Positions 58,381 to 61,600 of a stretch of DNA of 64,000 nt are shown in pieces. The DNA comes from Candidatus Latescibacterota bacterium. Its GTDB lineage: Bacteria; Latescibacterota; CBDEFO01. The notes under the pieces were generated by a model. The model was not told where the DNA came from and ran no database searches. It saw nothing but the letters and a program-made list of their open reading frames with translations. The DNA is taken from assembly GCA_965237525.1 (NCBI GenBank), contig CBDEFO010000008.1:1807607-1871606 (forward strand), in the 5' to 3' direction. Both the position numbers and the translations under genes were made by a program. The number at the start of each line of letters is the position of its first letter. Position 1 is the stretch's first letter.

Positions 58381-60156
58381 CATATGCAAGCAGATAGTAA
58401 ACAGCAAAGGGCAGATACGTGTAGAGGGGGGGCCGTCCCCTGTCTACTGTCTACTGTCTACTGTCTACTGATCTTTATGGGATATACCAGCCTCTACGCT
58501 GACTCAGGGAAGAACAGGCTAAGCTACGCCGTCTCGCTGGAGGCCCGGGGAGATCTCCAGGGGGCTTTATCTATTTATGAGGAAGGAATCAAAAAAAGGC
58601 CCAAAGATATAGGCATCAAAATCAGGCTGGCAAATGTATTATATAAGCTGGGTCGGAGGGAAGACTCTATTAAAGAATGGAACGAGATATTGAAGATCGC
58701 TCCCGAATCTATACACACCTATTCTATGGTCGCAGAGCAGTACAGAATACGAGGGATGGCAGAGGAGGCGATAGAGGTCTACACAAAATTGAGAGAAAAG
58801 TTCAATATGGAGCACGAATTTTCACTCCAGGTGGGAGATCTCTGGGCATCTTTGGGAAAGTACGATAGAGCCGTTCAGGAATATATAGCCTACCTCGGCA
58901 AAGGCTCAAATTCGATGGTCTATCAGATTGTGGAGCTGAAGATATTGAATCTGGCCAGGAATCGTCAGACTGTGGACTCGGTTATGCCGGTTCTGAAAGA
59001 GGCATTGTCTACCCGGCCTGATAACGCCTCTCATCTTCGGCTCTTTGCGGTCTGGTGCGTTGCAGCGGCGAAGGCAAGGGAAGCTCTTCCCTTTTTGATC
59101 TTGAAGGAGGTAAAGGACAAACAGTGGGAGGAGATTATCTACAGGTTCGCATCGGATTGTGAAAGAAATGGCTTCAAAAAAGAGGCCATGCAGACCTACA
59201 GCGAGCTTGCCAAACAAGCGCCGAATTCCAAGTACTGGTCACAATCCCAGCTTGCCGCAGGACGAATTCAGGAGGAACTTGGCCTCTACGGGCAGGCGGC
59301 TGTCTCGTACAAGGAACTGATAAGTAGGTATCCTCTGACCTATCAAAGCTTTGAGGCGCTCTACAGGGTTAGCGATCTGCAGCTTAATGTAGAAAAAGAT
59401 GTAGAAGCGGCACTTTCGTCCTTCCATCTCTTATCACAGAAATCCTATGCAGGAGCATGGAAAGAAAAAGCGCTTTTAAAGGTGGCCGAGTGTCTTGTCA
59501 TTCAGGATAAGATTGAGCGCTCAAAGAAAACTTATCAGCAGATTGAATCCTCGACAAAAGATGCGTCCACCAAGGAAAAGTCCCTCTTTAAGTTAGCCTA
59601 TCTTGAATATCTTTCAGGAAACTTTGAAAGGGCTCTCCAACTTTTGGAGAAGATATCTCTGGAATATCCCGGCGGGGAGATGGTCAACGACGCCTTAGAA
59701 CTGATCGTGCTTATAGAGGAGAACGCAGGAATTGAGGAGGGAAACCTGAAGGCCTTCGCCCGTGCGGAGCTTCTAAGGCTCCAGTGGAAAGAGGACGGGG
59801 CAATGGAAGTCCACCAAAAACTTATCCAGAAACATCCTACATCTAACCTTGCAGACGACGCTTTTTTGATGGTAGGGGACATAAAGTCCGATGCAGGAGA
59901 TTACTTCTCCGCTATTGAGACTTACAGAAAGCTCTCCCTTGAGTATCCCCAGAGCAGGCTTTCCGAACATGCCCGCGTGAGGATAGGGCGCATCTTTGAG
60001 GAGAACTTAAACGACACCCAAAGGGCGGCAAGGGAATACGAAATGTTTCTTGTAGATTATCCCGACAGTCTGCTCTCAGGTGAAGTGAGAATTAGGCTCA
60101 GATCGCTAAAGGAGAGGCTGAAGGCTTTGGAGGGGCTTAGAAAGGAGACAGGATAG
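58381..60156 (+). CDS. TPR-repeat protein with a putative signal peptide
   Basis: It has multiple TPR-like helical repeats. With a start at 58381, the N-terminus MQADSKQQRADTCRGGAVPCLLSTVYCLLIFMGYTSLYA has a signal-peptide shape whose hydrophobic core is encoded by a (CTGTCTA)x4 tract. Confidence 0.55.
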   Translation, partial: HMQADSKQQRADTCRGGAVPCLLSTVYCLLIFMGYTSLYADSGKNRLSYAVSLEARGDLQGALSIYEEGIKKRPKDIGIKIRLANVLYKLGRREDSIKEWNEILKIAPESIHTYSMVAEQYRIRGMAEEAIEVYTKLREKFNMEHEFSLQVGDLWASLGKYDRAVQEYIAYLGKGSNSMVYQIVELKILNLARNRQTVDSVMPVLKEALSTRPDNASHLRLFAVWCVAAAKAREALPFLILKEVKDKQWEEIIYRFASDCERNGFKKEAMQTYSELAKQAPNSKYWSQSQLAAGRIQEELGLYGQAAVSYKELISRYPLTYQSFEALYRVSDLQLNVEKDVEAALSSFHLLSQKSYAGAWKEKALLKVAECLVIQDKIERSKKTYQQIESSTKDASTKEKSLFKLAYLEYLSGNFERALQLLEKISLEYPGGEMVNDALELIVLIEENAGIEEGNLKAFARAELLRLQWKEDGAMEVHQKLIQKHPTSNLADDAFLMVGDIKSDAGDYFSAIETYRKLSLEYPQSRLSEHARVRIGRIFEENLNDTQRAAREYEMFLVDYPDSLLSGEVRIRLRSLKERLKALEGLRKETG

Positions 60157-60253
60157 TAGATAAGTAGATAGTAGGTAGGGGTATATCCTCTTCTCCCTGT
60201 CTGCTCTCTATTTGTTTGGGACAAAAGATTTTGTTTAGGACAAAAAATATAGT

Positions 60254-61600
60254 GTGGGAAAGAGGGTATACGCCTTGAAAAGAAAATCAGAAACACCAGT
60301 ATCAAGTAGGCAGTATCAACTACGTAGGGGGTACCTCCTGCCTGTCTACTGTCTACTGTCTACTGTCTACTTGTTTATGGCTTCAGAGGTCTGGGCTCAA
60401 AAGATGCTGATATACATGGATCTGAATCAGACCGATCATCTCAAGGCGTATGGTGTCGCGTACCGGGCTTTAGAGCAGGGGATAGATGTGGAGTGGCTGT
60501 TGAACTACCGGGGAGGATCATTTATGATAGACAGTGTATATGAGTTGATAGCAGAGGCGAGGATAAGAGGGGTCTCCTTTTCTATGATAGGCGGAGCCGA
60601 AGCTGCCCTTGTATACGCTCAGATCGAAAGGGAGAACATGGACGTAGTGCACCTTACAAAGACTCCCAGAATAGCGGTCTATACTCCCCCCAACACTCAG
60701 CCCTGGGACGACGCTGTGACCCTGGCTCTCACCTACGCACAGATACCGTACGATAGGGTCTGGGACGCGGAGGTGCTTGCTGGAGAGCTTGAGAAATACG
60801 ACTGGCTGCACCTTCACCACGAGGATTTTACAGGACAATATGGCAAGTTCTACAGCACGTACGGGAATCAGCCGTGGTACAGACAACAGCAGATCCAATA
60901 CGAGGCTGTGGCCCGCCGTCTGGGATTTAGCAAGGTCTCCGAGGAAAAAAAGACTGTGGCAGGGGCGATCAAAAATTACGTCATAAATGGAGGTTTCCTC
61001 TTTGCAATGTGCTCGGCGACAGATACGTTTGACATAGCTTTAGCCGCTCAAAATGCCGACATCGCCGTGGCTGTGTTCGACGGCGACCCGGCCGATCCCA
61101 ACGCCCAGGAGAAGCTCGACTACTCCAGGACGGTGGCGTTTGAGAACTTCAAATTAGAGATGAATCCCTTAGTATACGAGTTCTCGGATATAGACACCAC
61201 GCCCAAAAGGATGTCACAGATACGGGGCGCCGAGGCAGATTATTTCACTCTGTTTGAGTTTTCTGCCAAATACGATCCTGTCCCCACTATGCTGACTCAA
61301 AATCACACACCTGTTGTGGACGGCTTTCTGGGACAGACTACCGCGTTTAGAAAGTCCCTCGTAAAGGATTCTGTCGTGATATTGGGGGAATCTGCAGCAA
61401 CAGATGAGGCTAAATATATACACGGAAATGTGGGGAAAGGGACAGTTACTTTCTACGGGGGGCATGATCCGGAGGACTATCAGCACCTGGTCTATGATCC
61501 GCCCACTCAGTTGTCCTTGCACAAGAATTCTCCCGGATACCGGTTGATCTTAAACAACGTACTCTTCCCGGCAGCCAAGAAGAAGGAGAGGAAGACTTAA
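60254..61600 (+). CDS. Hypothetical secreted protein (start uncertain; a (CTGTCTA)x4 tract lies in the N-terminal coding region)
   Basis: 448-aa ORF. The N-terminal region LLPVYCLLSTVYLFMASEVWA-QK is signal-peptide-like. No family recognised. Confidence 0.45.
   Translation: MGKRVYALKRKSETPVSSRQYQLRRGYLLPVYCLLSTVYLFMASEVWAQKMLIYMDLNQTDHLKAYGVAYRALEQGIDVEWLLNYRGGSFMIDSVYELIAEARIRGVSFSMIGGAEAALVYAQIERENMDVVHLTKTPRIAVYTPPNTQPWDDAVTLALTYAQIPYDRVWDAEVLAGELEKYDWLHLHHEDFTGQYGKFYSTYGNQPWYRQQQIQYEAVARRLGFSKVSEEKKTVAGAIKNYVINGGFLFAMCSATDTFDIALAAQNADIAVAVFDGDPADPNAQEKLDYSRTVAFENFKLEMNPLVYEFSDIDTTPKRMSQIRGAEADYFTLFEFSAKYDPVPTMLTQNHTPVVDGFLGQTTAFRKSLVKDSVVILGESAATDEAKYIHGNVGKGTVTFYGGHDPEDYQHLVYDPPTQLSLHKNSPGYRLILNNVLFPAAKKKERKT

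Follow-up and report, generated by a model that had tools for sequence, protein, structure and literature searches.

Two heptamer tracts at the starts of adjacent genes

The stretch studied here, hereafter the window, is 64,000 nucleotides (nt) of contig CBDEFO010000008.1 from a Candidatus Latescibacterota bacterium. It holds a plus-strand cluster of genes for envelope and exported proteins, comprising DUF4159, FG-GAP, ASPIC/UnbV plus thioredoxin-like and DUF4175 genes, a TPR-repeat protein gene and a gene for an exported protein that we call gene 2. MoxR and DUF58 genes come next in related contigs, and the whole looks like a housekeeping cell-envelope operon. The family of gene 2 is named "asparagine synthetase B" by sources, and its product had no match among Pfam, NCBIfam and PDB sequences. 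Near the 5′ end of both the TPR gene and gene 2, the heptamer CTGTCTA is repeated in tandem.

An initial annotation had described these two tracts as four perfect tandem copies each, located in signal-peptide coding regions, and had proposed that gain or loss of a unit switches the two proteins on and off. Tandem Repeats Finder confirmed the four perfect copies at both sites, with 100 % matches (Table 1). The proposed limits, 58431-58470 and 60341-60376, point to the right sites and are a few bases too wide, and CLLSTVYCLL, given as the encoded core for both genes, is exact for the TPR tract and not for gene 2. The upstream start codons, given as ATGs at 58381 and 60254, had to be corrected, as the first is ATG 58384 and the codon at 60254 is a GTG. 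An in-frame ATG does lie shortly after each tract, as had been noted, 6-7 nt 3′ of the tract end (58477 and 60377). The encoded peptides read ...PCLLSTVYCLLIF... in the TPR protein and ...PVYCLLSTVYLF... in the gene 2 product. Such tracts far exceed chance and are confirmed as real: the 14-mer CTGTCTACTGTCTA is found six times in the window versus 0.01 expected, and the 8-mer CTGTCTAC 22 times on both strands versus 1.28 expected. An assembly artefact was ruled out, since the same tracts recur in six independent assemblies or contigs.

Both tracts form the 3′ arm of a hairpin. The predicted RNA fold of element 1 reaches -34.2 kcal/mol (z -2.8; 58390-58480 folded) and that of element 2 -30.3 kcal/mol (z -3.2; 60296-60380 folded). 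Because each tract folds with a degenerate GTAG-type 5′ arm around a short G-run/C-run core, the whole stretch from the candidate upstream start to the tract is repeat-derived. The two orientations of the repeat differ in coding capacity. The forward CTGTCTA array has zero stops in all frames and encodes the cyclic peptide LSTVYCL, which is moderately hydrophobic, whichever frame is read. Three units of the reverse array, TAGACAG, place TAG in frames 1, 2 and 3, that is in all three per 21 nt.

Table 1 Features of the window discussed in the text
Feature	Coordinates	Strand	Details
DUF4175 gene	54738..58130	+	
TPR-repeat protein gene	58384..60156	+	proposed start ATG 58384; gene callers: ATG 58321; alternative ATG 58477
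Gene 2, exported protein	60275..61600	+	proposed start TTG 60275; gene callers: GTG 60254; alternative ATG 60377
Tract 1, (CTGTCTA)x4.4	58440..58470	+	Tandem Repeats Finder, 100 % matches; encodes CLLSTVYCLL of the TPR-protein leader
Tract 2, (CTGTCTA)x4.3	60342..60371	+	Tandem Repeats Finder, 100 % matches; encodes VYCLLSTVY of the gene 2 leader
Hairpin element 1	58392..58474	+	degenerate GTAG-type 5′ arm (GCAGATAGTAAACAG...GTGTAGAGGGG), G-run/C-run core, tract 1 as 3′ arm
Hairpin element 2	60297..60365	+	5′ arm AAGTAGGCAGTA..., core GGGGGTACCTCC, tract 2 as 3′ arm
Reverse heptamers (AGTAGACAGTATACAGTAGACAG)	58112..58134	-	overlap the DUF4175 3′ end; outer partner of tract 1, 305 nt apart
Degenerate reverse heptamers (GATAGTA x3.7)	60152..60178	-	at and after the TPR stop; then a small hairpin and a T-rich run
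Complete inverted pair, preceding intergenic gap	54629..54722		reverse arm 54629-54651, 53-nt core, forward arm 54705-54722
Reverse heptamer array AAACAGT GAACAGC AAACAGT AGACAGT AGAC	49098..49129	-	intergenic
Mosaic repeat region 5′ of the FG-GAP gene	51586..51858		21-nt palindrome (51586, 51774), GTAGACAGT (51619, 51807), CTGTCTACT (51850)
Intergenic gap copies	4594..4931		CTGTCTACTG (4594-4603), AGTAGACAGTAG (4898-4909), adjoining palindrome CCCCGATAGATTCAATCGGGG (4911-4931)
Palindrome CCCCGATAGATTCAATCGGGG sites	3422, 4514, 4530, 4911, 11726, 22121, 42550, 51586, 51774		in the related genome L126, about 8190-8215

Export signals of the two proteins and the reading of the repeat

Among the 119 listed homologues of gene 2 (P0002-P0120), 116 carry a Sec signal peptide of ~17-28 amino acids (aa) that ends directly before QK/ER/DK(I/L)LIxMDL. 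As for the three others, P0077 and P0050 are seemingly truncated at the start and P0085 is printed too short to judge. The leaders of these homologues lack the repeat peptide, and their cleavage site aligns with the VWA-QK junction of the window protein, where ...RRGYLLPVYCLLSTVYLFMASEVWA is followed by QKMLIYMDL. In addition, the stretch LFMASEVWAQK is colinear with homologue leaders such as that of P0043, SLFAASSVWSQK; hence the repeat adjoins a retained ancestral c-region. The repeat starts exactly at the position expected for the h-region. Distant homologues of the TPR protein also open with a hydrophobic leader. Overall, the products of both genes very probably depend on an export signal.

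In the window proteins, hydrophobicity differs between the two start models. From the upstream starts, the best 11-aa hydrophobic window scores 1.98 in gene 2 and 2.40 in the TPR protein, as compared to 2.62 ± 0.57 in the homologue signal peptides. From the downstream starts, the values are 0.53 (ATG 60377) and 0.37 (ATG 58477), and these products lack a hydrophobic N-terminus. The hydrophobic core comes solely from the tract-encoded stretch, and for this reason the placement of the tracts within signal-peptide coding regions by the initial annotation is supported. The predicted leaders are MQADSKQQRADTCRGGAVPCLLSTVYCLLIFMGYTSLYA, followed by DSG, in the TPR protein and MKRKSETPVSSRQYQLRRGYLLPVYCLLSTVYLFMASEVWA, followed by QK, in gene 2. 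In other genomes where the tract clearly lies in a 5′ untranslated region (5′-UTR), the exported proteins keep a leader of their own after the ATG (e.g. L042, L089, L098), unlike the two window genes, which have none after their downstream ATGs.

Start codons and reading frames were compared with a related syntenic genome, L126 (a 4.54 Mb contig, ~96 % nucleotide identity to the window). Upstream of gene 2, a GAGGG Shine-Dalgarno sequence at 60262-60266 lies 8 nt 5′ of TTG 60275 and is kept in L126; with it, this TTG is a better start than GTG 60254. For the TPR gene, ATG 58384 is present in L126 as well, and another in-frame ATG lies at 58321. Open frame extends for 46 and 52 codons 5′ of the downstream ATGs, and in L126 both frames are still open through the elements despite 10-22 % divergence in the extensions. 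The L126 TPR leader even contains a 27-nt in-frame insertion, a copy of the 21-nt palindrome family listed in Table 1. Two other types of export signal were discarded: a Tat leader for gene 2 (QLRRGYLL), because L126 reads VGRGYLL, and a lipoprotein signal, because no lipobox precedes either Cys in the sequence. A scan of 58000-60500 on the plus strand for sigma-70 promoters and terminators found nothing above shuffled sequences.

Comparison of the two genomes also gave ratios of nonsynonymous to synonymous change (pN/pS). The mature part of gene 2 has a pN/pS of 0.17 (18 synonymous and 11 nonsynonymous changes) and that of the TPR protein 0.56 (17 and 34); to judge from these counts, the mature parts are under purifying selection, and the low value of gene 2 indicates a protein in use. 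The TPR N-terminal extension has a pN/pS of 0.25, with 6 synonymous and 6 nonsynonymous changes over 10.7 and 43.3 sites, a synonymous excess with a binomial p of ~0.02 (hand calculation from the counts). In the gene 2 extension the ratio is about 1.1 (2 and 7).

These data bear on an alternative in which hairpin and array are a 5′-UTR or intergenic element. Translation would then start at ATG 58477 and ATG 60377, the upstream frames would be accidental and extended by the gene callers, and no signal peptides would exist. Several observations fit such an arrangement. TAACTGA arrays, a comparable heptamer class, mostly stop just ahead of the start codon, at a distance of a few nt, and lack a Shine-Dalgarno sequence (PMC4679880). 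Across 120 listed loci with CTGTCTA tracts from other genomes, 19 % have an ATG of a long open reading frame (ORF) no more than 30 nt from the tract end, versus 8 % of controls; these are long ORFs, not gene calls, and 73 % of the tracts have no such ATG nearby. Obvious true starts near tracts include MRVLITGAGG, MKILVLGAGRMG and MRRVYMDHSATTP, and in the window itself short forward heptamers precede ATG 54738 and ATG 51873. The gene 2 extension, with its pN/pS near one and ~10 % divergence, behaves as intergenic DNA. On the other hand, the products would lose the leader that nearly all listed gene 2 homologues and the distant TPR homologues possess, and gene 2 would do so while under strong purifying selection. 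The residues just before its mature N-terminus would be a signal-peptide c-region with nothing preceding. The long open frames in two genomes, maintained even across the 27-nt insertion, the good Shine-Dalgarno sequence with its TTG 5′ of gene 2 and the synonymous excess in the TPR extension also argue against untranslated leaders, which we consider somewhat unlikely. The most likely course is that translation begins upstream and passes through the element; from the sequences compared, the need of gene 2 for a leader appears surer than its exact start codon.

We thus favour, as the probable explanation, that repeat elements, whether selfish or structural, are read through in frame and have been exapted as signal peptides. 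Both tracts belong to copies of a dispersed repeat, 5′-(TAGACAG)n - core - (CTGTCTA)n-3′, of which they form the 3′ arm, and each copy would occupy the place where an ancestral Sec signal peptide had its n- and h-regions. As the forward orientation is stop-free and gives LSTVYCL in every frame, the element can be read through. Initiation at TTG 60275, with its GAGGG Shine-Dalgarno sequence, and at ATG 58384 would run in frame through the whole element and join the retained ancestral c-region, LFMASEVWA before QK in gene 2 and GYTSLYA before DSG in the TPR protein. The repeat would now constitute the hydrophobic core of the export signal; in reverse orientation it gives stop codons and short C-terminal tails to upstream genes. 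The anatomy of the repeats, the architecture of their family, the signal peptides of the homologues, the conservation of the frames and the invariance of the copy number are observed in the sequences; we infer the upstream translation start and the export competence of the leader.

Several points weigh against exaptation. Members of the repeat class normally lie outside genes. An in-frame ATG follows the end of each window tract by 6-7 nt, and several tracts in other phyla end 5-9 nt before unmistakable true N-termini. Initiation at ATG 58384 should be impeded by the stable hairpin that begins 8 nt further on. At 40-41 aa the leaders are long, and their hydrophobicity is somewhat below that of the homologue leaders. 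Finally, the gene 2 extension looks, from the few changes counted, as if it evolves neutrally at an intergenic-like rate of ~10 %. If the leaders are translated, a repeat would have been recruited as a working protein module, the signal-peptide core, twice in one operon, and a repeat open in all frames and coding for hydrophobic residues could rescue genes that it disrupts.

Copy number of the tracts and phase variation

The frameshift arithmetic of the initial annotation is correct. A change of one or two units truncates the products to 26-91 aa, while three units more or less keep the frame. We considered whether the tracts are functional phase-variation switches, in which slipped-strand gain or loss of 7 nt toggles each exported protein at high frequency. 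A 7-nt unit is not divisible by 3, and the tract probably lies within the ORF, 5′ of the part encoding the mature protein. A precedent is found in the opa genes of Neisseria: their leader-peptide region contains CTCTT repeats, with a switching rate of about 1e-3 per cell and generation (PMC3745409). The likeness consists in a tandem repeat that is not a multiple of 3 between start codon and mature exported protein, if the upstream starts are used, so that a change of one unit shifts the frame. In contrast to opa, the window tracts have only four units, show no variation in six sequences, lose their purity in a relative and belong to a dispersed extragenic family. Classic leader-peptide switches use considerably longer tracts.

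Copy number was compared in consensus sequences from six sources, a small sample: the window, four metagenome contigs (L001-L004; 99.7-99.9 % identical, from three assemblies) and L126. The TPR tract is covered by three of the four contigs, and the look-up was biased for the gene 2 tract only. Both tracts have 4 units in every sequence compared, so that the expected differences in tract length between related genomes did not appear. In L126, the TPR tract reads CTGTCTA CTGGCTA TTGTTTA CTGTCTA; its three substitutions leave the ORF intact and indicate that the purity of the repeat is not maintained. Other short arrays are equally stable between the window and L126. A look-up of gene calls for OFF-type products starting at ATG 60377 and ATG 58477 gave none on record. 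A look-up of the 1130-aa DUF4175 product, meant to reach more strains, likewise gave none on record, and two scans of JGI metagenomes (flanking anchors with a variable gap, and the 3′ junction alone) had no matches, the species being absent from that collection.

The independent ON/OFF switching put forward by the initial annotation is therefore not borne out: the copy number is constant, no OFF-type gene calls are on record, the TPR tract is impure in L126 and four units are few. Neither copy-number variation nor a long tract kept pure, the marks of a contingency locus that we tested for, was found. Both tracts belong as ordinary members to a dispersed family and are not switches specific to their loci, and the host is an uncultured environmental bacterium whose operon has a housekeeping appearance. 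Arm lengths within the family do often differ by at least one unit (see below), in favour of switching; even so, we regard a functional switch as highly improbable. In the exapted repeat, the copy number would be fixed at its in-frame value; slippage could still produce a frameshift, but the tracts do not behave as a hypermutable switch. For annotation, it follows that arithmetic alone is insufficient to call gene-start heptamer arrays phase-variable, and that the choice of start codons near such elements needs care.

A dispersed family of heptamer-armed hairpins

In the window, heptamer-array repeats flank most intergenic gaps of the operon. Outside the two focal tracts, which contain eight of the matches to the 8-mer, 13 of 14 sites are intergenic or overlap a stop codon, in agreement with the earlier proposal that the heptamer is the core of an intergenic repeat. 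The suggested link of the tracts to a dispersed GTAGACAG/CTGTCTAC repeat also holds, and this repeat proved to be much broader than proposed. A scan for (CTGTCTA)x3 as an exact 21-mer, with one genome per species, yielded at least 120 stretches in metagenome-assembled genomes (MAGs) of many phyla, with G+C contents of 34-72 %. By record title these include Acidobacteriota (many Pyrinomonadaceae), Nitrospirota, Gemmatimonadota, Chloroflexota, Planctomycetota, Fibrobacter, Bacteroidota, Verrucomicrobiota and others. Numerous arrays can occur in a single MAG, for instance in Pyrinomonadaceae SMAG_U3359. The hosts of the family include many uncultured bacteria from soil and groundwater.

The members of this family have a common architecture. 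Among the matches listed, 77 of the 117 tracts of at least 3 units have an inverted partner arm within 250 nt. The order of the arms is (TAGACAG)n..(CTGTCTA)n throughout (opposite order 0/117), and the core between them peaks at 50-73 nt. Paired elements from other phyla fold at -75 and -91 kcal/mol (z -10 and -12), and the hairpins of the window share their architecture. Since the arms of paired elements often differ in length by at least one unit, the number of units changes over evolutionary time. Most variant units contain GTAG (GTAGACA, the main unit, GTAGGCA, GTAGTCA, GTAGGAA and GTAGATA); it is absent from units such as CCGTCTA, CTGTCCA and the AACAGT-type ones at 49098. A classification of the 120 listed loci by stop-to-stop open frames was discarded, because frames are spurious at high G+C and a paired reverse arm trivially closes the upstream ones.

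Array length varies strongly across the family. L120 (1223-1321), L034, L039, L075 and L011 have far longer arrays, with up to 14 CTGTCTA units followed by CCGTCTA arrays. Separately, conserved asymmetric cores of ~60 nt (GCTCCGC...GGTTTTTCTA) are common to several Acidobacteriota MAGs, always within heptamer arms (L008, L010, L049, L054, L107; L050, L060, L080, L095, L122); they could represent a MITE (miniature inverted-repeat transposable element) or an undescribed structured RNA. In another group (L044, L061, L087 and L119; also L012 7175-7291, L036, L064 and L093), the core forms a GC-rich hairpin, GGCGGCGCG...CGCGCCGCC, and T-runs occur on both strands, so that the heptamer arms extend an apparent bidirectional intrinsic terminator. 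Rfam gave no meaningful match, either for the whole window at the gathering threshold or for seven paired loci at E <= 0.1. A large protein search with (LSTVYCL)x6 returned only 8 tiny hypothetical ORFs, a 10-aa match being unable to reach significance.

By analogy, the repeat is like three known kinds of element: the dispersed heptanucleotide class, the hairpins of the repetitive extragenic palindromic (REP) kind and the in-frame palindromic elements of Rickettsia. In the first class, cyanobacterial short tandemly repeated repetitive (STRR) sequences are dispersed heptanucleotide repeats, and the "long simple sequence repeats" (LSSR) of Mrazek et al. 2007 are reportedly relatives of the heptanucleotide class. 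The TAACTGA arrays of Beggiatoaceae, Cyanobacteria and Bacteroidetes, described by MacGregor in 2015, are mostly intergenic and were proposed as binding sites for a translational regulator (PMC4679880). The CTGTCTA family resembles them in its 7-nt unit, in its short arrays of 2-6 copies at many loci, far above chance, in its overwhelmingly intergenic or gene-boundary location, in the presence of the same heptamer in distant phyla and in arrays that ORFs occasionally include at their very start or end. In both, one orientation stops all frames and ends upstream ORFs, and the opposite one stays open and specifies a peptide with a period of 7 aa (LSVISYQ for TAACTGA, LSTVYCL for CTGTCTA). Besides the heptamer sequence, the orientation differs: in the CTGTCTA family, arrays at the end of the upstream gene are in the stop-bearing orientation and those facing the downstream gene in the open one, opposite to TAACTGA. 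Two thirds of the CTGTCTA tracts form inverted pairs with strict polarity and a ~60-nt core, whereas a single inverted repeat was reported among 170 sets of TAACTGA (PMC4679880), and the association of CTGTCTA with start codons, at the 19 % versus 8 % given above, is weak. The spread of one 7-mer over such a range of G+C contents poses the question already raised by STRR sequences and TAACTGA, namely what makes and moves such repeats.

The second kind comprises REPs, bacterial interspersed mosaic elements (BIMEs) and REPINs, GTAG-tagged palindromes described by Di Nocera 2013 (PMC3733652), Nunvar 2010 (PMC2817692) and Bertels and Rainey 2011 (PMC3116915). Like them, the heptamer-armed hairpins are abundant, extragenic and equipped with GTAG, come in inverted pairs with a short spacer and enter mosaics together with other small repeats; they follow coding regions, sometimes look like terminators and occasionally lie within genes. 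The family could have originated as non-autonomous REP/REPIN-type elements moved by a REP-associated tyrosine transposase (RAYT) or TIRYT, an IS200-like Y1 transposase recognising GTAG. This would account for the GTAG in most, not all, variant units, for the REPIN-like inverted pairs with a short spacer, and for the window sites where a 21-nt palindrome adjoins GTAG (4898-4931) or enters BIME-like mosaics; GTAG-tagged palindromes, some within genes, are indeed known from many prokaryotes (PMC3733652). The arms, however, are tandem arrays of a 7-nt unit and not one imperfect palindrome of 20-40 bp, so that GTAG and the inverted pairing are present and the single palindrome is not. The identical heptamer across phyla also departs from REPs, which are usually lineage-specific. 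A tblastn search of ~0.9 Mb of loci and the window revealed no Y1 transposase with an E. coli RayT query (nothing below E = 0.6), a weak test, as RAYTs are usually single-copy. We consider this origin unlikely, and membership of the heptamer-arm family among the RAYT-mobilised REPs is at best putative.

The third kind is represented by Rickettsia palindromic elements, which, according to Ogata et al. 2000, are reportedly inserted in frame in protein-coding genes. If the upstream starts are used, the window genes show the same arrangement, a palindromic repeat inside an ORF, in frame and absent from homologues. The Rickettsia repeat is translated within a conserved protein at a tolerant position; in the window genes, readthrough is predicted. 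Judged from the sequence, the insert of the window genes would stand in for the signal-peptide core, a functional module, instead of adding a surface loop.

A cross-phylum family of hairpins with heptamer arms appears not to have been described previously in such form. Tentatively, it may be an undescribed and horizontally spread family with strict arm polarity, whose sequence, open in every frame in one direction and closed in all three in the other, would allow it to donate signal-peptide cores and stop codons to adjacent genes. Its conserved cores in Acidobacteriota could then represent a structured RNA of a new kind, a MITE or a module for bidirectional termination, and the two window genes would be live examples, with a residual capacity for frameshift switching as a by-product.

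Further copies in the window illustrate both orientations. The last residues of the DUF4175 protein, QVDSIQ, and its TAG stop are encoded by reverse heptamers (58112-58130), and the terminal EQVDSKQ and TAG stop of the gene at 53547..54647 derive from the reverse arm at 54629-54651. The C-termini of two consecutive genes (QVDSKQ, QVDSIQ) thus appear to be set by the GTAGACAG-orientation repeat. The forward arm of the same pair is followed by a GAGGTG Shine-Dalgarno sequence and the DUF4175 start. Similarly, the short forward copy CTGTCTACT at 51850 is followed by GGGGA and the ATG of the FG-GAP gene.

Heptamers are interleaved in the window with the 21-nt palindrome CCCCGATAGATTCAATCGGGG and a 41-nt unit, giving a BIME-like mosaic, and the GTAG and palindrome arrangement at 4898-4931 is REP-like. 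The palindrome has at least 9 sites in the window versus 0 expected and often adjoins heptamers. Between the DUF4159 and FG-GAP genes, 50835-51759 consists of 18 tandem copies of the 41-nt unit ATTGCTTCGGGCGAGTGTCCCTTGCAATGACCGAAGGACAT, with matches of 97 %; it shows a higher-order period of 164/188 nt and gives spurious long minus-strand ORFs. This array is not in L126, and one copy of its motif GTCATTGCGAGGGGC lies in the DUF4175-TPR spacer (58184-58198). Downstream of gene 2, an insertion sequence (IS) of the IS1182/IS5 family at 61812-63342 (ORF 62156..63226, minus strand) interrupts an HU-family DNA-binding protein gene. The insertion is polymorphic among near-identical strains, being found in the window, L002 and L004 and not in L001, L003 or L126, and a second IS1182/IS5-family copy lies in the window at 40837-42363.

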